From Takakia lepidozioides (taxonomy: Eukaryota; Plantae; Bryophyta): 64,000 nt of DNA. Positions 24,261 through 62,359 of the stretch are shown in pieces; position 1 is the first letter of the stretch; every line of letters begins with the position of its first letter. A program made the position numbers and the translations under genes. Below the pieces are notes generated by a model that was given only the letters and a program-made list of their open reading frames with translations, ran no database searches and was not told the DNA's origin. Location: contig CM060733.1 of the NCBI GenBank assembly GCA_030704615.1, positions 55,490,001-55,554,000 on the forward strand, given 5' to 3'.

Positions 24261-24837
24261 ACCCAGCACACGGGAGGGAGAAAGATGACCGAATCTAGGG
24301 TTCCAAGATGGAATATTCTAGGGCGTGATTGATGGATGAAGGATCGCATCGCGGGTTCCATCCATCACGTCGGTTCTGGCTACTCGCGGCTAAACTCTGG
24401 CGATTGAAAAAGTTGCCCAGGCGGCGAAACCTGGCGAAACTCTGGCGAAACGCTGAAGCCCGTTAAAGATTACGGAATTCAAATTGCGGGGCCGACGTGG
24501 CGATGTTACTAGTAGGAAAAATCGGAGCGTAGCTAACTAACGTAGGCTTTGTGCGAATCTACGGACCTCAAGTCTGTGACGAGCGAGAGAAAGAAATGAG
24601 GGTTTGCGTGCTGGTCGTCGTGTACTCGATCACGCTGCGAATCACGCCTTCTGTGTTGCAATCACGCTGTCTGTGATCTTGCATTGTTAGGACGAACTGA
24701 TTGTGTTTATGTTAACTTTATTCTCGAAGCTGTTGTTTGGAGTTAGAGGAGAGGCGGTCTGCGTCCAGGAGGCTTCCAGACATTGCGGGTGAGCTTTGCG
24801 TTTGTTCGTGGTAGTTTGATATCTCTTGGGTGTAATC

Positions 24838-27800
24838 ATGAAGTGGGAACGAGTGAAGGTGAAGCACAAAGTGAAGGAGGTTCTTGAGGGCAAGAAGTCC
24901 CCAGGCCGCAAGGGCGGCACAGCAGGGCCCGGGAAGAAGTGGGGCCATACATGTAACACGGTGAAGAATGGTCGCTATCTTTATGTGTTTGGTGGCTATG
25001 GCAAGGACGATTGTCAAACGCAGGACGTACATGTCTTTGACTCTGGTGAGATTCGCCTCTTCGTTCACATTGCTCTTGACAAATCATTTAATGGTTGCGG
25101 GACCGCACTGTCCGCAACAGTAACCATTTTTATAGGAGCTGAGCAAGCTTCCATGACTTGAAGCACGGGTGTCTGATCTGGTTGGGCTAGTAGAGCGGTG
25201 ATTCTTGGTAGAGAAACCTGCAGGCGTTATTGTATAATATTCGTGGCAGGAAAGAGGAGGAACTCCGCTGTGAGCTTTAGAATAGGACTACTGGGCGCGC
25301 TTTTTCACTTAGGGTTTCTGGATGAAGCAAGTTTCCACGACACCAGTGTATTTACCGCCTGACATCCTAGATTCTGCTGGTAGCTGTGATGGAAAATAGT
25401 TATTTGAGCGGGAACTTTGATGATGGGGAGCGCTTGTGCTTGACCCTATGCAAGTCCATCACACCTGTGCCCCTCGTTGAAGCAGTAATATTAAAGGGAA
25501 AGCCTTTCTTTCCATTCCAACCTTAAGCCAGTTCACGGTAACACAAACTACTGATTGTCCATGTGTGCTAAATTTAAACAGACCTGCGCAAGTCTCAATT
25601 GGGGGGGCGTTGCTTTAGTTCACTTATGTTAGTTAGGCTCTCTCTCTCTCTCTCTGTCCAGCATGGAGAGGAGGGCAGATAGAAATTGCAAGTGAATATT
25701 GGAGACGTGAGTTGGTATTCTGATCTGCCTGTTTCCCTTTTAGCTTGAATTGGACTGATGATCAGTGGGTGTCCTTTGGGTTCTGTACTAGTCAAGCAAA
25801 CATGGAGCAAGCCAAATGTTAAGGGGCTTCCTCCAACTCCACGGGACAGCCACACTTGCACCACTGTGGGCACCAGTCTCTTTGTGTTTGGTGGGACCGA
25901 TGGAACAAGCCCTTTGAAGGATCTCCATGTTCTTGATACAGGTAGAACTCATTGCATGGCCATTTCATAGTCGTCTGTTATGGGAGGGTTGGATATTTTC
26001 TTCACTGCAACACAAACAGTTAAAGAGGAAGCTTTCTCCAATGTTTATTGATTTTGGGGCCAGAAAAAGAAAATAACAGGGCAAGAGAGAGGGAGTTGTC
26101 ATAGGAGTAAAAATGGGTTGAGGGATGCTCACGCATGTATTCTCTGTGGTTCTTAATAGATCATAGTTGAGAACCCGGAGGAAGCGTTCCTTTTATAAGC
26201 CTTATGCCACAGCTGATGGTTGTAGTAGTTTTGATGGGAATTTATGAACACCTTTTTTCATAGATCATACTGGACTTCAGAATAGGTTAGCAAAGGAAGA
26301 CAAGCAGCAGGCTAGGTGTAGAAGCCATTATCTTGATTTGTATGTGTCAGGGATGTGCTCTGCTTGCACTAGTTGCTGCAAAAGAATTTCAGCGCTGTTC
26401 CTGACAGTGATTTATCTACCATGAAAGGCTGTGGGCAGATACAAGGACTATCCGTACTTCACTTTTTTTGTGGTGCATGATATCTATGTGGTTAGTTGGC
26501 TTGTTACTGATGCTTGAGACTGGCTGCAGTTACCAACACCTGGTCCATGCCCAAAGTACGTGGGGATGCACCATCAGCTCGGGAGGGCCATAGTGCGGCA
26601 CTAATTGGTTCACGTATTTTTGTGTTTGGGGGATGCGGGAAGTCCACTGATGAGTCTGATGAGACCTATTTCAATGATCTCTACATCCTGGATACAAGTA
26701 AGTGTTTCTGCCCCATTACTAACTGGATGGTGGAATCTGCGTAAGACAGGAGGATGTTCAAGTGGGAGGGGAAGGGGAACAGATTGTGTTGTGGTTATAG
26801 AACTACCTTCAGTTGATGGTATGCTCAGGTTATAAAAAGTTTTCTCAGATGTTGGGCGTTTCTTGAATCAGCAACGTTGATGTGGTCGAAAGCTGCTACC
26901 ACTGGTAATCCACCAGCTCCCCGAGACAGCCACTCTATGTCTTCATGGAACAACAAACTTATCGTGTTGGGTGGCGAAGATGCTTCCAACTCATTTTTGT
27001 CTGATATCTACATTCTTGATGCCGGTGAGTGGATCTTCTGCTTTCTCCATTGTGCCTTATCCATGTGTTCCAAGTAACGTGAGAAATGCAGGAATCTCAA
27101 AAGAGGCGAAGGTAAGGGTAGTAAGAGAAACCAATCCAGGGAAGTGACAAAGAGGGGAAGTAGGTGGTGCTTTGTTTCTGGTCCAATAATGTTCACAAGT
27201 GCATCTGTTGCAGAGACATACATTTGGAAAGAGCTGAGGACAAGTGGGCAAAAGATAATTCCACGAGCAGGGCACACTACAGTTGCCCTTCGAAGGCATT
27301 TATTTGTCTTTGGCGGGTTCACTGATGATCGCAAGCTCTTTGATGACCTTCATGTCCTCAACGTTGGTGTGTTCCCTCTCTCTTCCACATTTTCAGTACA
27401 GGTCAAATGAAGCCACAAAGTTACTTCATCTGTGGCACCTTGGCATGGAGGAGACAGACCCAAAGAGATAGGATGCACTGTTACACTTGATATCCAGCCC
27501 AGAAAGCTGTAGTAGGATGGTACTGAAAGCTGTTAAATCTGATTCTCTCTCACCTAAGAAGCCTTGAATCGAGCACAGAAACCTGTATTAAGATGGTACT
27601 GAATGTGTAAGTTTTCTTATGTAAGAAGCTCTGGATTCTGTTGCTATGCTTCCTCTGCTGCAGACAGTGGTGTGTGGACAAGAGCTGGGACCAGTGGCCA
27701 AGGACCTTCTCCCCGATTCTCTTTGGCAGGGGATGTGATTGATTCTGAAAGAGGCATCCTGTTGTTCATTGGTGGGTGCAATGAGAATTTGGAGGCACTC

Positions 27801-29807
27801 GATGACATGTACTATTTGGATACAGGTATGACATGTGGAAATGTGGGAAATATATAGTTAGTGCATGTGTATTTCTCAAGGGTAAGTATGATTGGTAATC
27901 TGAATTCTATATACGTCAATTTCATTAGCAGCACTTCCCTTTTGTTCCGCTGGCATGCAAAGTCTGAGGACTTGGTGGTGAAATACAAAGAGCTCCCCAT
28001 ATTAGTTTGGGCTTTTGCCACGAGTGCATTGAACCAAAGAAATAATTCTTGAATATGATTTTCGGGTGATCAATCACCTATGTACCCTTCTCAAGATATC
28101 TTGGTATTTTGCATGAGCAGAGATGAAGGCAGAGAAGCCAGAGTTTGAACCCAGGAGGGAGAAACTATCTTTGCGCAAGGAACTGAAAAGGAAGCGGCAG
28201 GAGCATTTAACAGGCGGGCCGGAAGATTACACTTCCCCTCTGGGTGCTGGTTCAGTTGGTAGGGTTCCTTTGCTTCTTCCTTCCTCTCTCTCCCTATCAT
28301 GCACATAGTTCATTCATCTAGGCAGTCCCGTTTCTTGATAGTTACCAAGAACCTAGAAAAGACTTTTGCTTGTATTACATCAGTCCTAGCTTTCTGTGTT
28401 ATTGTTTTACAAAGCAACAAAATTATATGTTGTCAGTGGAGTGGGTATCATACTTGTTCCCACTCTGGAGGAAGCACCCAGACGTGGGTTGTGATATGCT
28501 CCCCAACGCACCTTAGAGAAGGTCCTCATCAGACCTGGTCAGGAAAGAATGATAACAACCTTCTCTAAGGTAACATCTAGACAACACATCAGACTTGTTG
28601 TCAGCCACTTGTGGGGGTTAGATTGATGTATACTGGATGCATGAATGCTCCATGCATGTTTGTTAGCATTTGCGCGTGCAGAACAGTTTGAACACTTAAA
28701 GAGTAGATGAGAGGGGGTAGGCAGTTTTGTCAAGTCTCGACACCTGTGGAACCGAATGCAGGTCCAAGCCTGTATGGGGTGTATGACGTAGTGCCAGTGG
28801 CAGAGCGCATATTTGAGGCCAAGATTAGCGACGTGTTTCACTATGGCTTCACTCTGGAAGCCACCATCGATGGCAAACCCTTGCGTGGCCTTCTCTTTTC
28901 CTATAAGCCTGGCTTTGCTCACTCTGCCCATAACTATGTCACCAGGTTAGCCTCCTACACCATACTCTTTTTTTCACGTCTTTTTTGCATTTGTGATGTG
29001 CAGTTGTACTTGTAATGTGTGTGTTGAACGTTGGTAACCTAATACTCCTTGCTGATTTTTTAACTTGTAGAAAGAAGGCTGCGGAAGAATCGGCTCTTGC
29101 TAAGTTGCGGGAGCAGCGGAGACAAGAGCGGAAGATGGCCCGCTTTGCTAAAGCTCAGCAAAAGCGGGCGGATGCTGCAGCAGCGTCAGCAAAGGATCCC
29201 CGGGCCGTACCAACAGTATCCGGTCCTCCAACAGCTCAAGTCCCTCCTGAACCTTTCCAAAACTACCTGGTATGTGTCTAAATCATTTTTATCATCTTCG
29301 GCAACATACCCTTCTCTCGTGTGCTGTATGTGCCGATGTTTGCAATCCCGGGTTTGGTCTGAGCTATGTTATGTTTCCCTATGTGAGTCTCTTCCTGATT
29401 TTCAGGGATTGTTTGCATTTAATGCAAATGAGCTAAGTGTTACATATAACCAGCACTTGTGCATTTAGAGGGATGCTAATAGGATTGTGAGACACCTATA
29501 CCTTTATTACCAGTCTCCTCTCCCCATTTTTCCAAGGAATGATTTTTTTTTTTCCTGTTTGGTACATCTTTGAATGGCCTATTAGATTCCAGCCTTAATG
29601 TTGGACATCTGAGTACTAACGGGTTCTTTGTGGAATCTGAAGCAACAAATGCTGGGCACAAGTGGAACCGCTTCTCCGCCAGCCGAAGTGAATGATGCTA
29701 GCCAGCTTGTGAGCCCAGGGCTTGCAGGAGTTTCTCTTCCTGCAGCAGAAGCTGGCCACTCACCATCTCAAGAATTCGATACTCCCTCCACTCCACCAGG
29801 TCTATAG
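24838..29807 (+). CDS. Kelch-repeat (galactose oxidase/kelch superfamily) protein, multi-exon
   Basis: Exon-borne kelch repeats (WGHT..YVFGG, PRDSHT..FVFGG, AREGHS..FVFGG, PRAGHT..FVFGG) and a plant-type C-terminal block FEAKISDVFHYGFTLEATIDGKPLRGLLF. GT-AG introns; stop TAG at 29805-29807. Confidence 0.88.
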
Positions 29808-35899: not shown

Positions 35900-38800
35900 G
35901 TCATAATCGCCTCCCTAGCTGGTGATTAGGTCCCTCTAACACCGGATAGTCGACAAGTATCCATCTCAATAAGATCATTGCTTGGTCTTCAATCGCACAA
36001 GTCCCAGTATCTGAAGTCGATAGATCAAGAGGTCGGATGCAGAAGTAGCCCCATCGTTAGTCGTCTTCCTGCAATCCATGGCTTTCACCATGGTATTCAT
36101 GGCGTTGAACTCCTACAAGCTAGACCTTGGGTCCTTGTCAACCTCACCATTGTCATGCCCACTACCTCTGTCCAAGGCATCGTGGACACAACCACTCTCC
36201 GCTAGGAACTTCCTCAAGTGGCGGTGTTAACATCTCATGTGCTACCTCTTTGAGCATTTGTCACACACCAACATGGTTGCGGCACCACCAACATGCCCAC
36301 ATAGCATGCAACGCAACCCTACAGGTACCATCTCATCCACAAGTGGAAGGTGACATGACGCACAATTGAGCACATGGTCCTTCCATACCATGCCATCTCG
36401 ACCCTCCAGGATAAACATTCATGAAGACAACACCTCCCGGACCCTTAGAATCACACGACCTGCTGTGACATCCAAGGTCGTAGGCGCTGTCTGCTGCACA
36501 TACACATAGTCCCCAAGATAGAAACGTCGAACACCTGGCCGATATCCCCCTCCACGTATAGTGGCATACTTCAATGTGTCTCGGTGTTGGGCAATAGAAA
36601 GGTTCTCAAAAGCCATAGGCATGACTCTCTTGAACAATTCTGCCCGCTGGGCACATGCTTGTGTCCACACATCCAGATCATCAAGGTTGAGGACTACTGC
36701 AGTTTCCCTGTGAATAGATACAGACAAATCTGGATCTCGGACAAAGAGAAAGAAATAAGGCGAGAACGAGGCAAGTGATGATTGCTTGCTAAACCTGTAG
36801 CCCATGGCCAACCAAGGTAGTTGAAGGTCCCAATCTCCCAGGTGTCCCTTCTGCAAACCGTACTTGCGTAAACCCCTCTTGACTGTCTGAACAACTCTCT
36901 CCGCCAAGCCATCAGCCTCGGGATGATCCCAAGAAGTAGTGCGGTGGTCTATCAAGGCTTGCTCACATAAAGCCTGAAACTCCCCCAAGAACTCTCTCCC
37001 CTGGTCCGTGAGTACCTCGGCTGGAGCATCAAATTGGCTAAACACTCGATCTAAGAATGCATACGCCGCCCCCTCACTTGCCTTGTCAGGCAATTCAATC
37101 CATTTAGGGAAGTATTCCACCATCACTAGCACATACTTTGTTATGGTGAATCGTTAGTGGCAATGGGCCTGCAAAGTCAAGACTCCAACAATAGCCCAAA
37201 TCCATAATGGGTAAATGATGCAACTGTGGAGTAGGTGCATTGAAGGAAGCCCGTACTCTATCACATACCATGCACCTTGCCACTAACTGCCTGCACATTT
37301 GCATGCATGCCCCGCCACCAGTACTGCCCTTGCAGCAAACTATGAGTGCGCAGCACGCCAAAATGTCCCAACTCCTCATGAGCATGACGTACCAATCGCG
37401 CTCGTTGTGTTGGATGAGGCACAATCCTCACTCGTCCATCCTCCCATACTCGGAGTAGGTGAGTCCCCTCCCACTTGAACATCTTGGCTCGTTGTAGGAT
37501 CCGATCTCTCTCCTTGGCGACCACACTGGCTGCTGTCTCTCCGGCACAAAGATAGGCCAACATTGTTGCATCTTCATACATATCCTTAACACCACCAAGT
37601 TCCTCACTGATCTCCGGATCGTCTTGCACACCATTTACATGACCAATCCTATGGGATGGACCAGCTTGAGCTCCCATTGCTAGAATGCACAAAAAGACAG
37701 ATGCGTGTCATCTTGACACCATCTCCTCGTCCGTCTCACCATGCCAACGAGCTCATGTACCATCAAACTTACTTGTGCATGGATTGCGACTCAATCCATC
37801 CGCATCCCGGTTGACTATTCTGGCTCGATGCACCACTTGGAAGTCGTACTCTTGAAGCATAAGTGCCCACCGTGTAAGCTTCCCTGTAAGCTTGTCTGAC
37901 TCCATCAACCACTTCAATGGTTGGTGATCTGCGACAATGCTGGTGAAGATATTGCCATACAGATAGCATCTGAAATGTGCCACTGCCCATACTGCAGCTA
38001 GACACTCTCCTTCATATGAGCTCTACTTCGCCTCAACATCATTGTTCGAGCGGCTAGCATATGCCACTACGAACTCTCTTCCCTCATCATCCACCTGTGT
38101 GAGCACTGCTCCAATCCCCAGCATACTCCAATCCGTATATAGCTGGAAAGGCCGCCCCCGAATAGGCCGCCTTAGAATAGGTGCAGAAGTCAATCGAGCC
38201 TTGAGTTCCTCAAAGGCTTCCTCCTGCTCCTCCTCCCACTGCCACTCCTGACCCACCTTGGTCAACTTGGCAAGAGCCTTTGCAATGCTACTAAATCCCT
38301 TGACAAACCGTCGATTGTAGTTTGTCAACCCATGAAAGCACAAACTTTGCTTACATCTATGGGGCGTGGAATGCGTGCAATGGCCTCCACCTTTGTCTGT
38401 TGAACACCTAATCCTCCAGGGTATATCATGTGGCCCAGATACTCAATCTGATCGTGGAAGAACTTGCACTTTCCAGGGTGCAGTTTCAATCCATGCGCCC
38501 CCGCTCAAACACCACCTGAAGGTGTCTCTCATGCTCCTCAACCGTGGCACTAAAGATGATGATATCATCAATGTAGCACTGGACGAAGTCTAGCCCTGCA
38601 AGAATCCTATCCATGACCCTATGAAATTATGCATAAGCATTCTTCAACCCAAATGGTATCATTCACATGCTAGTCAATCTCCCAGAATGTCGTCTTTTGC
38701 TTGTCAGCCTCTTTGATTCGCAACTGGTGATAACCCGATTATAAGTCTAATGTGCTAAATACCTTCGCATGCCTAATGGCATCAAATATTTCCTCTGGAG

Positions 38801-38900
38801 TTGGCATGACATATCTATCGGACTTAGTCTGACGGTTCACATGACGATAGTCCCCACACATCATTCTTTGTGTCCAATTGTCATAAATATCATTCATAGC
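35900..38900 (-). mobile_element. Ty3/gypsy element copy A (RT, RNase H, integrase, PHD), decayed and 5'-truncated; same family as copy B
   Basis: MCGDYR..., YTDWS, HAHEELGHFG, TDQGREF, DGLAER and a PHD remnant PPLEEVPSGEWLCPRC. A PPT-like 'ctagggaggcgat' lies near 35905-35920. Collinear with 39610-42640. Confidence 0.9.
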
Positions 38901-38902
38901 TG

Positions 38903-39608
38903 TGTCGTACGCATACATATCGCTACACAACTACAACGTTGTCCAAAACCACACAACACATGTGCACACCACACACTATTGTACCACTAGTCCACCACTA
39001 GTCCAGCCACTAATCCAACCACTAGGCTACAACTAGTCAATCACTAGGCTGCCACTATGCTGCCCACTATGGCAATCACTAGTCCACACAATGATAAAGA
39101 AGAAGAATACAAGCACAAGCTCATGCGAGCTCACAAAGCTGAAGCATAAACTCATGCATATATAAACTCATCACTCAAATACAAGTCAAGCCAAGTGCAC
39201 CCCACGCCATGGTGAATCCAAACTACGGCGCCATAGCTAGGCGCGGTGAGGCTCAACTCGAGAAAGATGAGCCTCCCGCGTTTGCCATGAAGATAACCAC
39301 TCCAGGGCCTAAATATGCCTTGACCCCTGGATTGACACTTGGGCCAATCCCAAATGTCAATATGTAAAAACTAGTTATTTCCTAGCTAGTTTCACATTAA
39401 TGGTAAAATAACTTGTCAACTGTCGTGCGCATACATATCGCTACACAACTACATCGCTGTCCAAAACCACACAATACATGTGCACACCACACACTAGTAT
39501 ACCACTAGTCCACCACTAGTCCAACCACTAATCCAACCACTAGGCTACAACTAGTCAGTCACTAGGTTGCCACTATGCTGCCCACTATTGCAGTCACTAG
39601 TCCACACA
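38903..39608 (-). repeat. 3' terminal repeat region of gypsy copy B: two 188-bp direct repeats (TG...CA) around a 330-bp spacer
   Basis: 38903-39090 and 39421-39608 are highly similar. A PPT-like 'taggggggcgat' immediately precedes 39608 on the - strand. Confidence 0.8.
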
Positions 39609-39853
39609 ATCGCCCCCCTAGCTGGTGCTTAGGTCCCTCTAAGTCCAGGTAGCCACAAGATGTGATAGTGACCATAGCCTCACTAAGTCCTCCACCACTG
39701 TTCCTACTACACTCAAACTCGATAGATCAAGAGGCCGGGTGCAAGAGTCGCCTCATCGTTAGTCGCCGTCTTGCAACCTGTGAACTTGAGGCTGAGATCT
39801 CGTGTATTGACTCTTATGAGCTTGGCCTCCCACGTCTTGTTAGCTGCCTCTAG

Positions 39854-41818
39854 TCATGTCCATTGCCACTTTCCCAAGCAGTGTGGACATAACCAATCTC
39901 CATCAGGAACCCTCTCAAGAGGTGGTATCAAACATCCCATATGCCAACCTCTTGAGCATCGATCACACACCAGCATGGTGGCTGCCCCTTTGGCAGACCC
40001 ACAAAACATGCACCTCAAACCTACAGGTACCACTGCCAAGTTTGGGTCAACTCTGCCATCGACATTGGGAAGGTGACACGGCGCACAATTACGCACATGG
40101 TCTTTCCAAGTCATGCCATCCCGACCCTCCAAGATCAGGACTCCTGAGGGCAACACCTCTCGAACCCTCAGAATAACACGCCCTGCAGTGACATCCAGGG
40201 TCGTAGGAGCAGTCTGCTGCAAATAAACATAGTCGTCAGGGCTAAACCTCCGAACCCCAGGACGATATCCTCCACCACGTATAGTGACATACCTCAACGT
40301 ATCATGGTGTTGTGCAATGACAAGGTTATCAAAAGCCATGGGCATGACTTTCTTGAACAACTCTGCACGCTGATCACATGCACGTACCCACACGTCCGGA
40401 TCGTCAAGGTTAAAGACTTGAGCAGTGTCCCTACGAATGGCTGCAGGAAAATCCGGCTCTTGGCCAAAGTGAAAGAAATATGGTGAGAAGGAGACAAGTG
40501 ATGCTTGTTTGCTGAACCTGTAGCCCATGGCTAACCAAGGCACCTGAAGATCCCAATCTCCTAGGTGTCCCTTCTGCAAGCCATACTTGCGCAAACCCCT
40601 CTTCACCGTCTGAACAACTCTCTCTGCCAAGCCATCGGCCTCAGGATGATCCCGAGAAGTGGTTCGGTGGTCTATCAAGGCTTTATCACACAAAGCCTGA
40701 AACTCCCCCAAGAACTCTCTCCCTTGGTCCGTGAGTACCTCAACTGGGGCACCGAATCGGCTAAGCACATAATCCAAGAATCCATACGCAGCCCCCTCAC
40801 TAGCCTTGTCAGGCAATGGAACCAACTCAATCCACTTGGAGAAGTGCTCCACCATCACCAACACATATCTGTGGTGGCGCATAGTCAGTGGCAACTGTCC
40901 TGCGAAGTCAAGACTCCACCTGTAGCCCAATCCCATGATTGGTAAATGATGCAACTGTGGTGTAGGGGCGTTGAATGAAGCACGCACCCTGTCACACACC
41001 ATGCACCTAGCCACGAACTGTTGCACCTCTGTATGCATACCACGCCACCAATACTGCCCCTGCAGTAAACTGTGAGTGCGTCGCACTCCAAAATGCCCCA
41101 ACTCCTCATGGGCATGCCGCACCAACCGTGCACGCTGTGTGGGGTAAGACACAATCCTCACCCGACCATCCTCCCATACTCGGAGCAGGTGCATCCCCTC
41201 CCACTTGAACCTCTTGGCTTGTTGTAGGATCCGATCCTTCTCCTTGGCAGTCACAGTGGCTGCCGTGTCTCCAGTACGGAGGTAGTCCAATACAGCCGAA
41301 TCCTCATGTATATCTCTGGTACCACCTGACTCGTCACTAGCCTCAGGGTCCTGAGACACTCCGTCTACAATAATCCATGTTGTAGGTCCAACTTGACCTC
41401 CCGATGCCAAGATATACAAAAAGGCAGATGCATGCCATCCCGGCACCATCTCCTCGTCTGTCTCACCATACCATAGAGCTCTGGTGTCATCCTGCTGGCT
41501 CGTGCATGGATTGCGACTCAATCCATCCGCATCCCGATTGACCAAACCCGGTCGATGCACAACCTGAAAGTCATACTTCTGGAGTATGAGTGCCCACCGT
41601 GCAAGCTTCCCTGTAAGCTTGTGTGACTCCATCAACCACTTAAGTGGCTGGTGATCCGTGATAAGGGTGAAGAGATTGCCATATAGATAGCACCTGAAGT
41701 GTGCCACGGCCCACACTGCAGCTAAGCACTCTCCCTCATATGAGCTATACTTAGCCTCTGCAGCGTTGTTCGAGCGGCTAGCATAAGCCACTACGAACTT
41801 TCTCCCCTCATCATCCAC
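39854..41818 (-). CDS. RNase H (part), integrase (HHCC and DDE) and C-terminal PHD finger
   Basis: VVAYASR, TDHQPL, H..LGH...CMVC, LDFAG, TDQGREF, DGLAER. C4HC3 finger CMFC...VCDRC...WHMGCL.PPL..VPDGDWLCPHC. Confidence 0.93.
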   Translation of the reverse strand: MDDEGRKFVVAYASRSNNAAEAKYSSYEGECLAAVWAVAHFRCYLYGNLFTLITDHQPLKWLMESHKLTGKLARWALILQKYDFQVVHRPGLVNRDADGLSRNPCTSQQDDTRALWYGETDEEMVPGWHASAFLYILASGGQVGPTTWIIVDGVSQDPEASDESGGTRDIHEDSAVLDYLRTGDTAATVTAKEKDRILQQAKRFKWEGMHLLRVWEDGRVRIVSYPTQRARLVRHAHEELGHFGVRRTHSLLQGQYWWRGMHTEVQQFVARCMVCDRVRASFNAPTPQLHHLPIMGLGYRWSLDFAGQLPLTMRHHRYVLVMVEHFSKWIELVPLPDKASEGAAYGFLDYVLSRFGAPVEVLTDQGREFLGEFQALCDKALIDHRTTSRDHPEADGLAERVVQTVKRGLRKYGLQKGHLGDWDLQVPWLAMGYRFSKQASLVSFSPYFFHFGQEPDFPAAIRRDTAQVFNLDDPDVWVRACDQRAELFKKVMPMAFDNLVIAQHHDTLRYVTIRGGGYRPGVRRFSPDDYVYLQQTAPTTLDVTAGRVILRVREVLPSGVLILEGRDGMTWKDHVRNCAPCHLPNVDGRVDPNLAVVPVGLRCMFCGSAKGAATMLVCDRCSRGWHMGCLIPPLERVPDGDWLCPHCLGKWQWT

Positions 41819-42096: not shown

Positions 42097-42612
42097 TTAT
42101 GTAATGGCCTCTACCTTAGTCTGCTGTACCCCCAATCCTCCAGGATATATCATGTGACCCAGATACTCAATCTGGTTGTGGAAAAACTTGCACCTCCCCG
42201 GGTGCAAATTCAATCCATGTGCTCTCAAGCGCTCCAATACCACCTGAAGATGTTTCTCATGCTCCTCCACCGTAGCACTAAAAATGATGATGTCATCTAT
42301 GTAGCACCGAGCAAAGTCCACCCCTGCTAGAATCCTATCCATGACTCTCTGAAACTCTGCAGGAGCGTTCTTAAGCCCAAATGGTAAGAACCGCCACTGA
42401 TATAGGCAATCCTTGCCGTGTTCATTGATCCCCCAGAATGTCGTCTTCTGCTTGTCCGCCTCTTTGATCGGCAACTGGTGATATCTGGATCGTAAATCCA
42501 AAGTGATAAAGACCTTAGCATGCCCGATGGCATCAAAGATCTCATCTGGTGTTGGCATGGCATACTTATCGGACTTGGTCTGACGATTTACAGGCCGGTA
42601 ATCACCGCACAT
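42097..42612 (-). CDS. Ty3/gypsy reverse transcriptase
   Basis: MCGDYRPVN, LDLRSRYHQ, LPFGLKNAPAEFQR, YIDD. Confidence 0.95.
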   Translation of the reverse strand: MCGDYRPVNRQTKSDKYAMPTPDEIFDAIGHAKVFITLDLRSRYHQLPIKEADKQKTTFWGINEHGKDCLYQWRFLPFGLKNAPAEFQRVMDRILAGVDFARCYIDDIIIFSATVEEHEKHLQVVLERLRAHGLNLHPGRCKFFHNQIEYLGHMIYPGGLGVQQTKVEAIT

Positions 42613-43153
42613 ACGTCTCTCCGTCCAATTGCCATAGACATCATTCTTGGCGTGGCATCACTGTGGCTGAAGCATACTCTCTACCAGAGAGCTCTACCAA
42701 ACCTGCCTCCTAGAGATCTTGAGTCCTCATCTGAATCAAAGACCTCTCCATGTCACTATATCTATAGGGTCTCCGAAAGATTGGCGTGTCAGTGGCCAAC
42801 TCAATACGGATCTCTTGACCCTTCAGTGCTCCCAAGTCCTTCAAACTGAAGGCAAAGCAATTCCTGTAAGCCCTCAGGAACCGCCGTATACGTCGTCTCT
42901 CTCCTCCGGTGACAATGGGTCCAATGTCAGGCTCCCAATTGTTCTCCGTAACTGCAACCTTAACTCCAGTGGGCTTAGAGGTAGAGGACGCGTCCCGTGG
43001 TTGCTATGCTGCAACATCTTGAGTAGTGCCCGCTGCCTGCTCTGTCAATGACAAGGCCTCATCCTGCCCCATCATCTCATCCTTAAGGACCTCATCAACC
43101 CGAGAAGAATCCCCAACCTCATCCATCACCACCGCCTTGGCTGCCAACTCCTT

Positions 43154-44380
43154 CTAAACCTCGAGCACATCCCACATGTGCCATGGATGTCTGCACCCTG
43201 TGGTCCTCACTTGCTCGTCCCCACTCACTGCTTGTACCGTCTCGGTAGGCAGAGAGACCATCAAAGGAAGTGTACTCCGCACTCTGCGTTGCTCAACCAT
43301 AGCCAAGCTGATAATCCAGGTCAAGCGATTGAGATCCATTGCTTGCCCCAACACCTGACGACGTGATGCCTCAGAAAGAGACGACACCGTCGTGGTACCA
43401 GTGGTAAAACCCATCGCCCGCTCACGCTCGTCAGCATTAGGCTCCACTAACTGCTGCAACTGAGCATCCCACAGGAGGCCAGGTCCACTATCCCGGAAAG
43501 CGTGCGATCCTGGGAAGCTGAGCAGTGTAGGTAATGTTGCTCGTGGTTGACCCACCCTGTTGACCACTGCCAAAGACGAACGGTCATCGTGTCTCACACG
43601 CTGAGACTGCCTCCCTGTGTCTAAAATGCTATCCACTGTGAGGTGTGCTGGCCGTTGTACCCCATCAAATGCACGCTTGAGCAGTGCGGGTGGCATCAAG
43701 TTAGTCCACCATAGCCGTGGACGATGAGCCCGTGATCCCACTGCAGCTGCATCCAGCAACACTGCTGACCCAAGCCACGACCAGACTTGATGCACACTGG
43801 CCATCACCCTGGCCCGAGAATCGCCCATCAGTGGCACATTCTCCAAGATGTATGTTGGAGATACAGCTTGATGAAGCTGCAAGTGGTGCAAAACCCGCAC
43901 CATCTCCCAAAACAGACCCGACCTCGAGTATCGCAATCCATTGCCATGCCCGGCTGATGAATGCCTTTGGCAGGGCCAACCTGCCACTACCAGATTAATG
44001 GAGCCAACCCGCTCCAAATCCTGCGCCCCCATCAACGAAATGTCTGCTGGCAAGGCCTGCTGATATCCACCAACTGCAGACACCGGCAACAACTCAGGGT
44101 ACTGTTGCACCAACTGAGCAACATGGCGTAGGGAGACGCTTCGTGCAGTCTCATCCCTCTGCACATACAGATAACGCCGAACTCATACACTTGATTATAG
44201 CACAACAACCAATCCGGTGTTGATCCCGCCAAACAAGTCTAGAAGACAAATGCCTTCATCCGGATACTGCCACACAATAGGTGTGGTGTCCATTGGAGAC
44301 AACTGAGGTGGTCCTGGTGCAATCCCCGCACTCTCCTCCTCTCCTGATGGTACAAAAGCCTCTACCCAGGCTTGTTGCAC
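43154..44380 (-). pseudogene. DNMT3-like DNA (cytosine-5) methyltransferase domain inside pol, with two in-frame stops
   Basis: Motif I LDLFGGINTG, IV AGWPCQ, VI ILENV, VIII AHRPRLWWTNL, IX ERERAMGF, X RQVLGQAM. ORFs 44195-44380 and 43154-44164 are in the same frame, separated by TAA and TGA. Confidence 0.92.
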
Positions 44381-44605: not shown

Positions 44606-45040
44606 CTACACACGCCGGCCCTCCCCTGACTGCCATCCAGGCCTATAGGAAGCTGACTCCTCCCAAAAATCCAGGGTGAAGCCCATGGGGTACACCCCAC
44701 CAACCATGACATCGTACGATACCGCGTCTGTCACAATGGCCTTGGCTCGCATCACTGAGCCATCTGTAGGGTGATCCGGCCGTAGTCGGATAGCCATCTC
44801 ACGCCGTGTCATGCCCCGAGCCTGCTCCAATCCTCCCAGAGATGTCTGTATCTGGAAAGGACAAGGCTTCATATCCGCCTCCGTGAGGCCCAAGCCTGCA
44901 ATAGCAGCTCTACCCAGCATCAATGGCTGAGCTCCTGAGTCCAACAAGACTCGCAGTGGCCGGTATCTCTTGCCTGCCGGTCCACTCAAATAGAAAATAC
45001 CATCCTGGTTGTCTAACATGACAACCCCAAGTGTCACCAT
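44606..45040 (-). CDS. Retroviral-type aspartic protease
   Basis: VLLDSGAQP active-site motif and a downstream YDVMVG motif. Confidence 0.8.
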   Translation of the reverse strand: MVTLGVVMLDNQDGIFYLSGPAGKRYRPLRVLLDSGAQPLMLGRAAIAGLGLTEADMKPCPFQIQTSLGGLEQARGMTRREMAIRLRPDHPTDGSVMRAKAIVTDAVSYDVMVGGVYPMGFTLDFWEESASYRPGWQSGEGRRV

Positions 45041-45837
45041 GGCGCGCTCAATGGTTGGTCTAGCTGGCAGCTCCGTTAACCTGGCAGCTGCAGCTTGTCA
45101 TGGCGCCGCCGTGGCAGTCTTGACCCTCAAATTCGAGGATCCCTCCGGCACTACATCTCCCACTATCTCCGCAGAAGATGAAGTAACCTCCCCACTCTCA
45201 CAGAGTGTAGCTGCTAGCCTGAACACCTCAGCTGGTCTTAACCCCGACGTCGCAATTATGGTAGCTGAGAACAATGGAGCCTAACACACAGATGTGGCCG
45301 CCCCCAGCAGCACACTAGCTGCCGTAGCCTTGGCAACACTAGGTAGTGGTGCTGCCCGTGTGGCTCTCCCCAATGGCATAATAACCTCTGCCTTAGTAAC
45401 AGTCGGGCGAGAACTAGGTGCCAAGGATGGCGTCGACACTGTCTCCGCCAATGTGATGATTGAGGAAGCCTAGCCTGACGGCTTGCCTCCCCACGCTGTG
45501 GATCCAATTCCACCTCTGCACCTCGTGGCTCAGGAACTCGTGCTGCTCCTTGGGTCACTGCCGCCGCCGAATCCACTTGCACTAGTGGTAGTGCTGCCCC
45601 GCACATGAATCCCATGCCTCCCATATCTCCTCCCTCAGGAGCAAGAGGTGGACCATCCGGCCTTGGAGCCAGTACCACCTGAGCTGTAGTCATGTCAGCA
45701 AGCCTCTGCTCTAGCTGCTGAAGCCGGTTAGCCATGCCTTGGTCAACACCCTAACCTCCACGTCCTTGGCCATGTTGAGCTTGCCCTTGGCTTGCACCTC
45801 GTGCCTGGCCACCTCGTCCTCTCTGGGCTGCTCCACC

Positions 45838-46948
45838 TCACCCCCGGCCACCATTGTTCCCTTGGAACTGGCCTGGGCGCAACTCATGATGCAAACCATA
45901 ACACTGGGCCTCTCCATGCCCGTGCTTACCACAATGCCCACACTGCAACTGTGCAGGCTGTGCATGTGCCGGCCCTTTGCCTCCCTTTGGGCAATCTTTC
46001 TTGACATGGGGTCCTCCACATGTCCAACACACCACCTCCGCCCGTTGTTGGCCTGCAAATGAAGGGGGAGACCCCTACATCTGAGGTCCTCTCTGTCCTT
46101 CCCTGGGCTTCACCTGAGCCCCATTGTTGCCTTGAGCACGTTGAGGTAGTGGTTGGCTAGAAGCACCACTACCCTGTGGTGTCTCCTTAGCAAATCCCAC
46201 CATGACCATTCATTCCTCCACCATGTTGAGCTCTATCCACTCTGCCAGCAAAAACACATTTGCTAAGGTGGGTTGGGCCGCTTGTAGGAGAGTTGCATCC
46301 CGCACCCTTCTCCTCAGCTCTTTGTCCAATATCCCATACCAGAATTGGACTGGATACTGGTGCTGGTGCGGTAGTGGCTTGGGTGGACGTCATAGCTACG
46401 GTACCACTAGTCCCACTGCTGCTTGTTGAAGCTGCCGGTGCAGCGGCAGGTGTAACCACTGCCCTCGTGGCTCTAGTGCCCCTAGTGATGGAGACATAGT
46501 CGGGTGACCAGTACATCTTCCACTCCTTGATCTCAACCTCATGCCCCCACCTGAACTCATGTTAATCATCCATAGGCGGCTCCTCAAGGTACTGAAACAG
46601 CCCCTTCCATGCCATGAAAGGGGTAAATAGTTGTGGATTGCGCATTTGCTGCAAATCACACCAACTATCAAACTCTTAGATAAAATCATCCAACTCAATG
46701 GTGCCCACCGCCCCAGAGTACCTTCGTGGCCCTTTGGTAGCTCCATACATCTCCTCCATTGTATCCCACAACAATGGCAAGGAAACAACTTGCTCCGCCG
46801 GTGTGAGTCCTCTTGATTCACAATCCGAATCAGAACCTTCCGTAGAAGACACAGGAGGCGAAGGTGGCCTAAACCGCACACCTCGTCTCGTGTACCCATT
46901 AGTATCGCTAGTGCTCGAACCGGCATTCTCCCCAGCAACTAGTGGCAC
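45838..46948 (-). pseudogene. gag with two zinc knuckles, frameshifted
   Basis: CWTCGGPHVKKDC and CGHCGKHGHGEAQC; upstream YSG....LDDFI.EFDSW. Confidence 0.75.
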
Positions 46949-47149
46949 CTCCGTGTTGACAAACTGTCACTCAACCGGTCATGAACATGTCCCTAACCCC
47001 CTCTCCACAAGGTAACCGGGTAGAGAACCTGTTGCGGCTTATGGTTTGGAATACTGGGTTCCTAACATAGCCTACACCTGCACCTGCATCCACCGCAAGC
47101 ACTCATACGGTTGGCTGGTCATCGATGGTCTGATTGGTCATCACCCCAG

Positions 47150-48219
47150 CCTCACCCTCTTTGGGATGTTTGCCAAGCTCGCCTAGTGTGTCGCGAATGG
47201 AGAGACATGATATACCGAAATACATTCCTATGTGATCGTGCAACTAGACGTGATTACAGAAGTATATATTCCCCGATGATTTTACGTGTGACAAAAGGAG
47301 GAAATTGGTTATGGTCAGTTTACGATGCCTCGTTGCAGAAATGGTGCACCCTGCCTTCGTTGACAATTGAGTCAATTCCAAAGGCAAAGTATTACGAGGA
47401 TTTTTTAATCGCAGGAGGTGGGGGACTGTTGTGTGTGGATGTGACAAATTTCCCTGAAACGGCCAAGCTATTCATATGCAATCCCGTAAGACAAGGTTGG
47501 AAAGAGCTGCCGCCCTTAAACCACCAACGACATCCTGTTCTAATGCATGTGCTGGCTGACAAGTCCACGAACAGTTACAGGATCATTGTGGCTGGGAGTG
47601 CATCATCCGGAACTGGGCACCTTTCTAGGAAAACAGAGGTTTACGATTCTAAGACGTCGGAGTGGACGGAAACGGGGGAGTTGCCTCTTCCAGAGTTTGG
47701 ACTTAATGAGTATCAAAATGGTGCATATTGCAATGGGGTGCTGTATTGCCTTGCAATAATAGACATGGGTAAGGGTGTATTAGCCTACGGTGTAGAAGCA
47801 GGAATCTGGTCAGAGTATACCTGGTGTATGATCCCAATCTTGAGCGTAATTCCTGATGCCTATTATGCGACTACACAGGTCGTGGAATGTGGAGGGGAAA
47901 TCTACCTTTTCGTGGAGCAAGAAATTGGTAGATATGTGCATACTTGCATTTCCAAACGTCAGTCAAATGGGTGGTCATGGATAAAGTTAGTAGACGAGTC
48001 TTGTGGAATACCCAGAGTACACATGTGTTGCACTTGGGGATCATCAACTATGTATCTGCAGCTCAGTTTCACACACCATGGTCATCTACAACTTTCAGGA
48101 CGAGGACACTTTTTGTACGACCATACCTCCACCAACAACTCCCGATCAATGAGGCAAAAGAGTTGCCATTTTAAATCCACTAGCATCTCTTTGAGCCAAA
48201 TTTTCACATGTCGGCTTAG
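47150..48219 (+). pseudogene. F-box/kelch-like protein, N-terminally truncated and frameshifted
   Basis: F-box tail PLWDVCQARLVCREW, GGLLC, ICNP....WKELPP, TEVYDS...W. The C-terminal YPEYTCVA...FEPNF lies in another frame, and there is no ATG before the F-box. Confidence 0.75.
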
Positions 48220-48748
48220 TTTTGAGATAATGAGTGATTGATTTATTGACTTTTCAAAGGAAGTGAGTTCTGCTCCAACTTATGCATACATCCGACATTA
48301 GTATTTGGTGAGGGAGGAGAGAAATGAACGCACTTCCAGGCAATGTGCTCTCAGATAGCACTCAGTCAATCAGGTCCCATTCAAGTATTTCAGAAGAGGA
48401 ATAGATGATAACTGCTGACAGTGTGTGAATCTTCGGTGGCTAAAAGGACTTAGCTGGTTACAGGGCCTGGTGTCACTGAGACCCTCGACCCTCAGTGCTC
48501 TTGGGTCACTGCCTTGGAAGTACACGTCATTTGATTACTATGTAAATGGAAGTGTTGGGTGAATTAAGCATTGGGCAACCCCACGGTGAACTCCAATGGT
48601 GAATTTTTGTGTGAATCTTCAGTGCTAGAGCTGTAAATCTTGTTCATACAGGCGGAGAGCATGCATTGATGCTTCACTCTTTCGGTCAACTCAGTAAATC
48701 CATGGTACCAGGGGAGCGAGCACGCATCTTTCAATTAGGCCTCTGATT

Positions 48749-58330: not shown

Positions 58331-58407
58331 GGAAAAAAAATGATTGGACTTGGACACTTGGGCAAACGGCACATGCTACCCTGGAGGCCACACTTGGGCC
58401 TAGACAT

Positions 58408-59540
58408 TGTGATGCTCAAAACGTGCTTATCGTTGGGATTCTCCTTCCTCTTCCTACATGCACATGTAACCGGGGAAGTAGCACGGCAGAGCAGGCCACG
58501 TGATGAGGCGGGAATCTCACGATGAGGAGTCAGTCAGATGCCACAGAACGTACAGAGCTACCACGCCAGAACCTGCTCTCACATGCACATTCGTCTCATG
58601 CACACACCTCTCTCTCTCTCTTACACCAAGTTTATACACCAAAAATACCTCCCCCATTCCATTTTCAGGAACCCCTTTATTCAGCTGCCACATCACATGT
58701 GAGTCACTACCACGCGACAAGGCGTGAGTGGACAACTGCCAAGTAGGCTTATCAAGGTCATCGCAGATATCAACGATTCCTAGAATTAAAGGCGTATTAC
58801 AACGGTATGGCTAAAGTAATATGTCAGAGCAGCCCCAACAGCTCTCTACATTACATCCTGCGGTACTAATTAATCATCTGTCAGGGAGAATTGGGAGCAG
58901 GGAGAGAACGGTCCATCACATATGTGATGCTACCCCGGGCTTTCAAAATTCTGAACACCTGTGAAGACAAGTGACTACGTTTGGTTTGCCAATGATCTTC
59001 CAGATCCAGATTTGATCAATGAGATCTAACACCTTGGAAGCCATCAAAGAGGAAGTAGGAGCTCGCAAATAACAAAGCATAACAGAAAGCGAGAACACGT
59101 CAGTCACCAGGAACATGTAGTCTAAGTGTCACAGTGGGAGTTGCAAGATGCCCAACCTGTTGTGCAAGAAAAAACCCCAATCCTCACAACAATGGCCAGT
59201 ACATGAGCAAGACAAACTAAAACAAGTTAACCAAAACAAACTACTGCTAAGCTCTCTACCTATAAATGAAATCTGCACACGAGCTAAATTGGAATGAAGC
59301 CACAGCTTGGACACCTTCAAAACAGCTCCGGGATCATTGTCGAGCCTTCTTCTTGGGAGACATTTCCGCTGTCCTTCCCTCCACATTCACTACTGCTAAG
59401 CTCTCTACCTATAAATGAAATCAGCACACGAGCTAAATTGGAATGAAGCCACAGCTTGGACACCTTCAAAACAGCTCCGGGATCATTGTCGAGCCTTCTT
59501 CTTGGGAGACATTTCCGCTGTCCTTCCCTCCACATTCACA
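58408..59540 (-). repeat. 3' LTR (inner boundary approximate)
   Basis: Ends ...CATCACA at 58408 on the - strand and matches the repeat at 63696-64000. The inner end cannot be confirmed because the partner LTR is cut by the window edge. Confidence 0.65.
59241..59538. repeat. 149-bp tandem duplication (putative U3 region)
   Basis: 59241-59389 and 59390-59538 are nearly identical. Confidence 0.95.
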
Positions 59541-59820
59541 CAGGGTAGATCAAACTGCAGTCTCGAATGCAACAGATCAGCGATAGGCACTTCCCCAGGG
59601 ATCTCCTTGAGAAGGATGTTGAGGCAACAATCTAGCCCTGTTACCAGCAGTCATTTCATAAATCGGATAGGGCCCTTCAATGCGAGTCAGGTTTTCCTTC
59701 ATTTTCTATATCATGTTCAGCGAGGGTGGTTCTTCCCAGATCGGTGGGTCCCTTGCTAAACACGTCAATGTTACGTCTGATCAAATGTTCAAGCCTCTTA
59801 AGTTGGTGTTCTTCCAAGTC

Positions 59821-60270
59821 TCATATATTCACAGTTTCTAGCACCTCCTTGACATGAGTCTCATTTATTGTGTCATCATTCTCAGCAAGAGGGGATGCAG
59901 AATACCTTGCAAAGGCAGAGACTGCTTCTACATCAGAATTCACTATTCCCATCTCTTGAAGGGAGAATCCTTCCTGGATGTCCTCAATGTCACTAATAGG
60001 AGTTGCAGAAATACGAGCCATAACCTGCCCCTTTCGGACTGTGACTGGAATGCGTTCAGGGTTAGCTATTAGTAGTTTAATCTCCCCTCTAAACCCTCTA
60101 TCAACAACAAGTGGAGCAACCATGCAATGTTTCTGGAGAGCCAAACGTTGCCATCCCACTGTTTCAAGATAGTGTCCTTCTGGACATATGAAAGCCTGCC
60201 CTGTAGATACAACTTTCTGGCATATAGCAGGGATGATAAAATCAGCTTGAGCACGTAGCGTTATCTCTTA
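59821..60270 (-). pseudogene. dUTPase-like domain downstream of the protease
   Basis: ITLRAQADFIIP...VSTG...PEGHY...LALQKH...VVDRGFRGEIKLLIAN.....VRKGQVMARI follows the trimeric dUTPase pattern, but catalytic motifs are altered. Confidence 0.78.
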
Positions 60271-60280
60271 CAGGTATTGG

Positions 60281-60949
60281 CTAACCCCCTTTTTGTCGAA
60301 CAGTAGGTATGGTCCATTGGAGAAGAGAGTCCTTGGGAGTTCCCATCTGCATGAATTGCTGCCAATTGACTAACCTACCGTCACTTTCCTTAACACGTCG
60401 GGGTGTAGCCCTGATCTGAGACAGGTTGGCTCTGCTGATGTTGCGAGAGTACTGCATAGTAGTCAAAGGGATGACCACTTCTTGGCCATCACCCTTGTTG
60501 AAGCGCATGGTAGTGTCTCCAAGGTCAATGGAAGCAGCAGCCCCCTTCATCCAATCTAGGCCTAGAAGAAACGGGTCCCCTATTGTCACAATGCAAGTGA
60601 TCAGTACTTCATTGCCACCAATTCCAACAGGAACAGCAACAAGCCCAAGAGGTTCATAGCTAGTACCATCAGCAATTATAACCTCCACACCAGCAGCAGA
60701 GCCCAACTTTAATCCTAATATGCGCACGACTTCTAAAGGGATAGCACTCACAGTACACCCTGTGTCAATTACACAAGGGAAGTTCAGCTGGCCTACTTGA
60801 CATTGAGTCATGAGAGGAGAAATGGGATCAGCTAAAAGCTTCTTACTCAATTCACAGTGCAACACTTTGAAGTTTGTAGAAAGCATCACCTTGGTCCAAT
60901 GGCTTTTGTTATCAGAATTTTTGAGCTGCTTGCTTTTAAGACCTCCCAC
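60281..60949 (-). CDS. Retroviral-type aspartic protease region
   Basis: CVIDTGCTVSAI, IADG, FLLGLDWM. Confidence 0.85.
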   Translation of the reverse strand: MGGLKSKQLKNSDNKSHWTKVMLSTNFKVLHCELSKKLLADPISPLMTQCQVGQLNFPCVIDTGCTVSAIPLEVVRILGLKLGSAAGVEVIIADGTSYEPLGLVAVPVGIGGNEVLITCIVTIGDPFLLGLDWMKGAAASIDLGDTTMRFNKGDGQEVVIPLTTMQYSRNISRANLSQIRATPRRVKESDGRLVNWQQFMQMGTPKDSLLQWTIPTVRQKGG

Positions 60950-60999
60950 ACCTGACTCGTTAGGAGATCTTATTCGTTTTAAGGCTGCTTACCTTTCTC

Positions 61000-62316
61000 A
61001 AATGCCTTCAACATGGCTAGCAAGTCTGGTTGGTAGTGGCAGAATCTAGTTGCGTGGTTGGGATCACCATAGATGTAGCAAGGGGCAGCACAGCTTCCAC
61101 ACAGCATCAGACTTCAGGTTAGTCATCCTGGCTTCTATGTCTACTTCCAGGTCATCCAAACGTCGAGCCAAAGCCTCAGTACCTTCAGCTCTTGCTTCCA
61201 GTACCGGGGGTGGGATATAAGCACGAGGACTCTTGACCCTTTCAGTTTCTCTGTCAGGTATAGGAACATTCACAAACTTGACTTCTTTGCGAGAGGTCTT
61301 AACATTCATCTCCTTGATTTTGATCTCAACTTCTTTGACCATTTGGTCATCATTGTCAAATTCTTCTCGCTGAGCCCAGGTCTGGACAGAGGCGGAAAGA
61401 CCTTGCCAAAAGAACATCTTGATCATCCTAGCTCTTTCCTCAATATTCTTGAAGTTTTCAGTAAGCTCCTACCTTGATGTCTAAGTAGTATTGCCACAAA
61501 GGTTCACCTTCTTAGTACTTCCTATTGTAAAATTTTCCAAATGTCTCCAAGGGAAGCTCATCAGGTTTGAACAGCTTGGTGGCGCTGACCAAAACTTGCT
61601 TCCACGAAGGACTCTTTTCCCCCACTAAATCAGCATTGAGTAGGGTTCTGGTTTGTCCCTTAAGTGCCATTTTGAAGGAATGAACTTTGAAATCTTCAGG
61701 GACTCCATTCAACAAGGCTATACTCTCAAACAGTTCTAGAAAATTATCAAAGTCTTCTCCCAATCTGAATTCTGGATAGGCCTGAGCTTGGACCTTGGGA
61801 CCAGAGGCAGGGTTTGGGTATTGACAGGTTTCTGGACAGCATCCATAGCCACAGCCTGGTTCATAAGGATCTTTAATAAAGACGGAAATCTAGACAGGAC
61901 CTCCATAACCCACTTATCTCACACATACCTTCATCACCCATTGTCACTCCGGGGGAGGAGTTATCCAAATGAATGCCAGGTGTAATGATCTCTTCATTGT
62001 TCACCTTGGGTAGAGGGTTGGTGACACTTAAATTAAGGTGTCCCATCTTTCCTTTACATTTTGAGTCATTGACCAAAGGAGGGGCCACTGGGGGAATGGG
62101 CACGTTGGCTGGCCCAGTATTCTTGGGAGAATCTGAAACATCAGAGCCCGAAACACCAGCAGAACCCACTTGAGCATACATGTTAGTGGTGTCTTCCAGA
62201 GACATGTCACTATTATCTCCCGAGCTATCCCCTAATACTGAAGGTATTCTATCCGTGGACATCATCCTGTCAAAAACCTGAACGCAACCAGGACTTAGTG
62301 GTACTAGGCATCTCAA
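61000..62316 (-). pseudogene. gag, fragmented
   Basis: FDNFLELFESIA..NG, FFWQGL and a degenerate knuckle CYIYGDPNHATRFC. Confidence 0.7.
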
Positions 62317-62359
62317 CGGATGATGTCAAGCAAAAGGGGTGAGGAGTGTTCTTACACAC

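Follow-up and report, generated by a model that had tools for sequence, protein, structure and literature searches.

A DNMT3-type cytosine methyltransferase in Ty3/gypsy retrotransposons of bryophytes, predicted to end the first open reading frame

Introduction

Retrotransposons that encode a DNMT3-type cytosine methyltransferase (DNMT) have been described from Klebsormidium nitens (KnitGypsy-Dnmt3) and from Symbiodinium (SymbioDIRS-Dnmt3), and the accessible text of PMC5890265 gives the features of both. KnitGypsy-Dnmt3 joins Gypsy domains to a DNMT3-type domain that is intronless, non-permuted and under purifying selection, and that lies in the Pol open reading frame with reverse transcriptase (RT) and RNase H. 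The element has DIRS-like A-coding-B-A-B repeats (text and Fig. 4c legend) and is present in few copies in K. nitens. The retrotransposon DNMT3s of Symbiodinium methylate CG de novo in yeast, and the Klebsormidium Gypsy enzyme gave no methylation in yeast, a result that its authors call inconclusive (PMC5890265).

The accessible part of PMC6338049 states that land plants such as tracheophytes lack transposon-encoded methylases, and builds a loss scenario on this absence. The available parts of bioRxiv 10.64898/2026.05.21.726589 and PMC12344493 say only 'streptophytes', and their supplementary trees could include bryophyte rows. No bryophyte transposon-borne DNMT appears in the accessible text of 10.1101/363937, PMC6453930, PMC6673714, PMC10952607, PMC8616336, PMC5784723, or PMC6317226, and what is accessible of the text supplements of PMC5890265 makes no mention of Marchantia, moss or liverwort. 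In agreement with a preliminary description of this DNA, which knew of no characterized land-plant case, our literature search (subscription journals and Repbase were outside its scope) found no land-plant description of the element or of its conserved stop codon, and no mention of six Marchantia gene ids.

The element analyzed here lies in a window of 64,000 nucleotides, the whole stretch of DNA studied. It resembles KnitGypsy-Dnmt3 in its Gypsy domains, in its intronless, non-permuted DNMT3-type domain and in its repeat layout, but differs in its bryophyte host, in a stop that cuts the DNMT off from RT, in the PHD finger of its integrase (the term 'PHD' is absent from the available main text of PMC5890265) and in its very high copy number. 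With SymbioDIRS-Dnmt3 it shares a retrotransposon-borne DNMT3 domain and split direct repeats. That system differs in its tyrosine recombinase, characteristic of DIRS elements, whereas the present element has a DDE integrase and its relatives have 4-bp target duplications.

Element structure and state of the copy

Three-frame translation and Pfam searches of 10 stretches identified a Ty3/gypsy element on the minus strand, from about 46970 down to 39854 (Table 1). Its domain order is a gag-like region with two CCHC knuckles, protease (PR), C5 methyltransferase, RT, RNase H (RH), integrase (INT) and PHD finger, and thus includes the PR-RT-RH-INT order of Ty3/gypsy elements with RVT_1 and rve matches. 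RT (RVT_1, E 7e-31) and the PHD finger (E 3.5e-10) were recognized by Pfam, the protease match (Asp_protease_2, E 0.011) fell under the Pfam cut-off, and the gag-like region had no Pfam match and is 62-72% identical to the N-terminus of Marchantia ORFs. The preliminary description had placed a full set of C5 methyltransferase motifs in canonical order, on the same strand and without introns, between protease and RT, and this was confirmed. Its span, 43154..44380, holds the domain, but the core is narrower (about 43280-44263). It had overlooked the motif II residue, and likewise the PHD finger, the family-wide stop (43004-43006) and the 3' end with its split repeats.

The DNMT frame of the window copy has stops at 44197, 44185, 43156, 43006, and 42712, and frameshifts occur between protease and DNMT and elsewhere; the copy is therefore dead. 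Both C>T-type stops reported earlier within the domain are real (44195-44197 and 44183-44185, just after motif I), but a further stop at 43154-43156 and the frameshifts had been missed. A family sibling (P0409) is open where the window copy has this further, private stop. The second copy has no DNMT part, and everything upstream of RT is gone from it, not just the DNMT. Other copies run on past the 5' break of the window copy, and their loose ends fall at 47123-47124. An intronless F-box/kelch ORF adjoins the break (47154-48241, plus strand), its F-box start replaced by the broken 5' end of the element. The junction likely reflects a deletion after nested insertion; the other half of the F-box gene was not found across the tandem copies.

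Table 1. Positions in the window of the element, its repeats and the adjoining copy.
Feature	Position	Strand	Basis
5' break of the window copy, joined to F-box/kelch ORF without F-box start	47123..47153	.	Loose ends, F-box and kelch matches
Gag-like region, two CCHC zinc knuckles at 45901-46029; broken by stops and frameshifts	45901..46966	-	Translation
Retropepsin protease, LLDSGA at ~44941	44609..45097	-	Translation, Pfam
DNMT3-type C5 cytosine methyltransferase domain (predicted type), motifs I-X in canonical order	43280..44263	-	Pfam, PDB profile and fold searches
Fast-evolving spacer, predicted end of ORF1, one private stop (43154-43156)	43007..43279	-	pN/pS 0.65-0.85
Conserved in-frame stop (43004-43006) and CAA-CCA hexamer between DNMT and RT	42998..43006	-	Locus comparison
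RT N-terminal block and reverse transcriptase, broken	42097..42997	-	Translation, Pfam
RNase H, integrase (H2C2, rve), C-terminal PHD finger (~39875-40010)	39854..41818	-	Pfam, PHD matches
Polypurine tract directly before repeat B1	39611..39625	-	By sequence
Repeat B1, 190 nt, ends CA	39421..39610	-	Repeat comparison
328-nt segment between B repeats, putative repeat A2	39093..39420	-	Analogy with L017/L005
Repeat B2, 94% identical to B1 (11/190 differences), element 3' end	38903..39092	-	Repeat comparison
Second copy, older and truncated at the 5' end; spans only RT to PHD, 78% identical	35902..38895	-	Repeat comparison, translation, Pfam

Identity of the methyltransferase domain

The stop-free ORF at 43157-44182 matched PF00145 (E 3.1e-10, 40.4 bits, cut-off 22), the HMM check put forward in the preliminary description. 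Motifs I (LDLFGG, ~44233), IV (GWPCQ, Cys at ~43971), VI (ENV, ~43843), VIII, IX, and X, numbered by the usual convention, follow one another in canonical, non-permuted order without introns. The motif II position has a non-acidic residue in the window copy versus an acidic one in relatives. Across the family alignment, conservation of the catalytic Cys is 90% or more, no variation occurs at the Glu of motif VI or at either Arg of motif VIII, and the catalytic residues are kept across relatives that are 35-65% identical.

All 26 PDB sequence matches of the window ORF were to DNMT3A/B/C (best E 1.9e-7). A 30-sequence family profile ranked DNMT3A (1e-23) before DRM (3e-14), M.HhaI (1e-9) and DNMT2 (7e-8), and its 58 PDB matches included no DNMT1 or CMT. 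L001, an intact (stop-free) relative 64% identical to the window copy, gave an AlphaFold model with a pLDDT of 94.6, for which DNMT3A/B/C filled all of the top Foldseek rows listed; the best match was DNMT3A (E 1.2e-20, TMq 0.72, about 21% identity). These similarity rankings by profile and fold, which are distinct from a tree with host DNMT3, indicate a non-permuted DNMT3-type C5 methyltransferase that resembles DNMT3 more closely than it does DRM, DNMT1/CMT, DNMT2, or bacterial enzymes. The earlier assignment as DNMT3-like, and neither permuted DRM nor MET1/CMT, thus agrees with both searches. The domain resembles host DNMT3 (animal DNMT3A/B and moss PpDNMT3b) in fold, motif order and best structural match, but is intronless, lies inside a retroelement, is about 21% identical to the human enzymes and shows no PWWP/ADD or plant companion domain. 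A related DNMT was also detected in a 1053-aa protein (P0047) with PF12237 (PCIF1/WW-like) and PHD annotations, a different context with no RT match.

Stop codon between methyltransferase and reverse transcriptase

In the window copy and in all 20 loci that have the RT block among the 45 screened, a stop in frame with RT lies 13-19 codons ahead of that block. CAA-CC follows the stop directly in the window and in 19 of the 20 loci, and a stop plus CAR-YYA makes up 24 of the 10,049 stop triplets in the loci. The 20 loci belong to three families, 18 of them to a single Sphagnum-type family in which some are re-assemblies of one insertion; the independent evidence for the stop comprises four families, the window included. 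Exact CAR-YYA follows the stop in two of these four (window and L001). The Sphagnum-type family, which is sister to a Sphagnum troendelagicum protein, has CAA-CCC-ATG after the stop, a one-base mismatch to the hexamer, and the DNMT/RT junction of L022 holds two consecutive stops. All 16 covering copies of the Sphagnum-type family have the stop, and none of the other codons among the 1,622 is above 33%.

Annotated Marchantia and Calypogeia proteins stop 72-76 aa past the DNMT domain. Continuation into RT was found in 7 of 102 related proteins, a set in which many of the other proteins end at a decay stop or at the edge of a contig. Five of the seven are eukaryotic gene models, which presumably splice around the stop, and two branch outside the bryophyte clade. 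Open PR-DNMT-RT proteins (e.g., P0020 and P0064) were placed outside the clade of bryophyte elements by a fast tree with a long-branch warning on other rows. We infer that the stop is an acquisition of the branch containing the bryophyte elements.

Because the in-frame stop between DNMT and RT is conserved, ORF1 is, at the level of sequence, Gag-PR-DNMT and ends with the enzyme, and RT-RH-INT-PHD would likely need recoding by readthrough or reinitiation. The DNMT had been described earlier as lying inside pol; the protease-DNMT-RT order stands, but the conserved stop puts the domain at the end of ORF1. The uninterrupted PR-DNMT-RT frame envisaged there is absent from the bryophyte families seen, given the stop in the window and in 20 of 20 loci. 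If translated as predicted, the stop bears on both the abundance and the location of the enzyme.

The TMV-type leaky stop, UAG-CAR-YYA, is defined by its hexamer and gives 32% readthrough in planta (PMC2754532, accessible text). The window and L001 match it in carrying the exact hexamer, and the Sphagnum-type family differs by one base. That the stop is bypassed through reinitiation, or else through a pol RNA that is spliced or subgenomic, with ORF1 still ending in the DNMT, seems to us somewhat unlikely. In its favor, the 18 Sphagnum-type loci carry an ATG two codons beyond the stop, which itself is TAG in some and TAA in others. Against it, the window and L001 lack an ATG there and match CAR-YYA exactly, and TAA too is read through in the TMV context, at a lower level (PMC2754532, same text).

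Distribution, abundance and selection

A search limited to proteins of up to 2000 aa yielded 48 longer homologues, of which the 17 named sequences are all from bryophytes (15 Marchantia polymorpha, one Calypogeia fissa and one Sphagnum fallax). Among the 120 of 279 near-length homologues listed, 10 had bryophyte names and one a bacterial MAG label, and these matches add M. paleacea, Riccia sorocarpa, and S. troendelagicum. No tracheophyte name occurred among the 48 longer homologues or the 120 of 279 near-length homologues listed. The DNMT holds the same position in proteins, or their contexts, of six named bryophyte species, and M. polymorpha Mp4g09160 and Mp8g17980, annotated as hypothetical proteins, are close relatives with all motifs present. 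By these homologues, the kind of element described from algae extends to liverworts and mosses (Marchantia, Riccia, Calypogeia, and Sphagnum). A representative protein library contained 209 homologues at E up to 1e-30. Viral contigs gave no relative with a single query, and an alignment query retrieved 16 weak loci (E 1e-9 or worse). The sequence with the MAG label (P0355, Candidatus Obscuribacterales) lies on a 2.4-kb contig yet is a member of the element family; its end motif matches other family members, so it is likely mis-binned plant DNA.

The family is very large and highly repeated in the host, since 83,440 contig records of run X1 lie along the whole element. Summed depth in X1 was 0.63-1.2 million in the DNMT bins versus 0.89-0.93 million in the RT bins, where records and depth do not equal copy number and X1 may be the source sample. 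The domain is accordingly not confined to one copy. A run guessed to be RNA (X12) gave 67 records and no cover over 43479-44026, which is not evidence either way. Most copies seen among the 45 loci screened are broken.

Between the window and other families, with synonymous sites close to saturation, pN/pS was 0.15-0.23 for RT (0.15-0.28 across families), 0.25-0.30 for the DNMT (0.50 against the distant L022), 0.41-0.43 for the protease and 0.65-0.85 for the spacer, which places the DNMT between RT and the spacer. The DNMT domain is under purifying selection between families, in line with the ratio below one that had been looked for. Inside the Sphagnum-type family, DNMT dN/dS was 0.40-1.0, which is expected of decaying copies and is not support for selection.

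A large and diverse set of gypsy elements (L030-L044, P0025-P0037, and P0069) has RT-RH-DNMT-INT-PHD in one open frame. The full order was found in 37 proteins, of which one is named, a 'pol' protein of Scenedesmus sp. PABB004 (P0069), and no description of chlorophyte Gypsy-DNMT3 elements was found in the literature. The chlorophyte-type DNMTs are 33-42% identical to the present domain and the integrase is likewise PHD-tipped, but the DNMT follows RNase H and precedes integrase, all in an open frame. In the DNMT tree and the RT tree alike, each of 59 rows, 11 PR-DNMT-RT sequences split from 48 RH-DNMT-INT sequences (support 99 and 89), and the agreement of the trees suggests that the DNMT has been co-inherited with RT. 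As the RH-DNMT-INT rows include the Scenedesmus protein, the lineage spans green plants, with two DNMT positions.

Repeats, ends and replication

No flanking LTR pair was found in the window across the tandem copies. In place of two identical flanking LTRs, the layout is A-coding-B-A-B, full in L017 (A1 at 1679-2017, coding region, B1, A2 at 10353-10691, and B2 up to 10805) and partial in L005 and in the window, whose copy lacks the 5' A1. Other contigs also contain the B2-to-A2 junction. TGTCA starts 10 loci, representing eight or nine distinct insertions, after unrelated flanks, and the last bases of the elements are GACA or differ from it at one position. The two relatives with both ends (L017 and L020) each have TG..CA termini and 4-bp target duplications. 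At the internal B|A junction, the L017-type family has CA-GC-TG and the window CA-GT-TG. The chlorophyte-type loci, which lie on short contigs, yielded no LTR-type repeats.

By eye, no tRNA-type primer binding site follows A1. In three of nine copies, 16 nt after A1 show full complementarity to a stretch of A that lies about 26 nt beyond a TATA box; the match is 7-11 nt in the remaining copies against a shuffled maximum of 8-11, and it overlaps a hairpin in A. This hints that reverse transcription may be self-primed. Ngaro-type split repeats have their terminal sequences restored from an internal junction, and those of A-coding-B-A-B elements could be restored in the same way from the internal B|A junction. 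A two-LTR circle could instead be cut at B|A. Restoration is preferred because every 5' end seen starts with A. The combination of split repeats and a normal target duplication poses a replication puzzle for an element with a DDE integrase.

Two other elements were considered. The Tcn1 clade, described in the accessible text of PMC6317226 as moss and lycophyte chromoviruses with self-priming and a chromodomain, differs at the C-terminus of the integrase, where the present element has a PHD finger and no chromodomain match. Troyka is rejected, as it has CG..CG termini and a 3-bp target duplication (PMC12440569, accessible text) versus TG..CA and 4 bp here.

Other features of the window

A sorbitol dehydrogenase gene with introns (17430-22028, minus strand) shares 79-85% identity with land-plant enzymes across one exon and carries a reverse-transcriptase-like fragment in an intron (~18600-19600). 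Ranking by identity did not place the host. In a quick tree without fern, lycophyte, or hornwort rows, the gene joined Sphagnum (SH-aLRT 94) within a bryophyte clade (99), which bears out the land-plant host of the preliminary description and makes a moss likely. A multi-exon kelch-repeat host gene lies at 24820-29281 (plus strand). Two degenerate PLS-type PPR copies (1200-3400, plus strand, and 15370-16620, minus strand) are inverted, 14 kb apart and up to 93% alike. Transposon-like ORFs at 7485-9350 (minus strand) and 9373-10596 lie beside repeated, partly palindromic CTGAGTGCGGTGGCGCACTCAG motifs, and, judged by eye, the end of a non-LTR retrotransposon with RNase H and a zinc-finger/endonuclease-like part occupies 13850-14913 (plus strand). 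A further LTR element at 58400-64000 has a repeat pair at 58417 and 63696 (98% alike) and a protease-like ORF at 60281-60988.

Discussion

The unusual repeat layout common to the element and KnitGypsy-Dnmt3 makes it likely that the bryophyte elements are a branch of the known algal lineage, inherited from streptophyte algae, and not a new land-plant capture. This proposed kinship draws on the described features of KnitGypsy-Dnmt3, the homologue searches having returned no named Klebsormidium match. The broken window copy and the neighboring copy without the domain might suggest that part of a host DNMT3 was captured in a single event or evolves neutrally. That neighbor has lost all sequence upstream of RT, however, and the same DNMT position in six named bryophyte species, the even X1 depth along the element, purifying selection and congruent DNMT and RT trees refute such a capture, whose probability we regard as negligible.

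We propose that the DNMT would be made at Gag-like abundance as the end of ORF1, cut free by the protease and packaged, and that it would methylate cytosines, likely CG, on the new cDNA of the element before or at integration. RT-RH-INT-PHD would be produced at a lower level by readthrough of a leaky stop set before CAR-YYA; for the Sphagnum-type family the route could instead be reinitiation at the ATG found two codons further on. The best matches of the PHD finger were CHD4, KDM5A/B PHD1, PHF12, PHF21A, ATXR5, and BAZ2, whose PHD fingers read unmodified H3K4; the integrase PHD may thus read unmethylated H3K4 and steer insertion into silent chromatin. New copies, pre-methylated in heterochromatin, would then do less harm to the host and be less readily detected as foreign DNA. 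We judge the chances of this whole reading, with a packaged DNMT acting on cDNA and a PHD guiding insertion, to be evenly balanced. A fuller version, in which the leaky stop gives the DNMT at capsid stoichiometry, the cDNA is self-methylated, a DDE integrase acts on ends defined by the internal B|A junction (CA-NN-TG) in place of standard LTR ends, the A-coding-B-A-B element settles in H3K4-unmethylated chromatin and a green-lineage-wide clade survives, sometimes very abundantly, in bryophytes, is more doubtful and is offered tentatively.

The enzyme could alternatively act mainly in trans on chromosomes, on sibling copies or host DNA, in copy-number control or as a parallel de novo pathway. 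The high abundance implied by the ORF1 position and the very large family in this host would fit such a role, and in heterochromatin moss DNMT3b methylates CG and CHH de novo (PMC6453930, accessible text), but most copies seen are broken, and the DNMT itself lacks a targeting domain, with the PHD on the far side of the stop. We regard action in trans as unlikely. The element and the window background have nearly equal CpG observed/expected ratios (0.50 vs. 0.49), and the absence of element-specific CpG or CHG depletion means that self-methylation has left no compositional trace. This, together with the inactivity of KnitGypsy-Dnmt3 on yeast DNA (accessible text of PMC5890265) and the Gag-level amounts that would fit a structural role, is compatible with a domain kept for nucleic-acid binding or RNA methylation in the particle. 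Catalytic residues conserved across 35-65% identical relatives, and a match to DNMT3 far better than that to DNMT2 (1e-23 vs. 7e-8), argue for DNA methylation instead, and a binding or RNA role appears to us a rather poor prospect, below that of action in trans.

Bryophytes keep transposon-encoded methylases, a point that bears on the loss scenario in the accessible part of PMC6338049. If methylation of the cDNA occurs as proposed, the element would bring its own silencing mark and add a mobile source of de novo methylation to land-plant epigenomes. The role of retrotransposon DNMTs has been a question since 2018 because the known hosts are hard to manipulate. Marchantia polymorpha is CRISPR-tractable and methylation mutants exist, so the role of the enzyme would be directly testable there.
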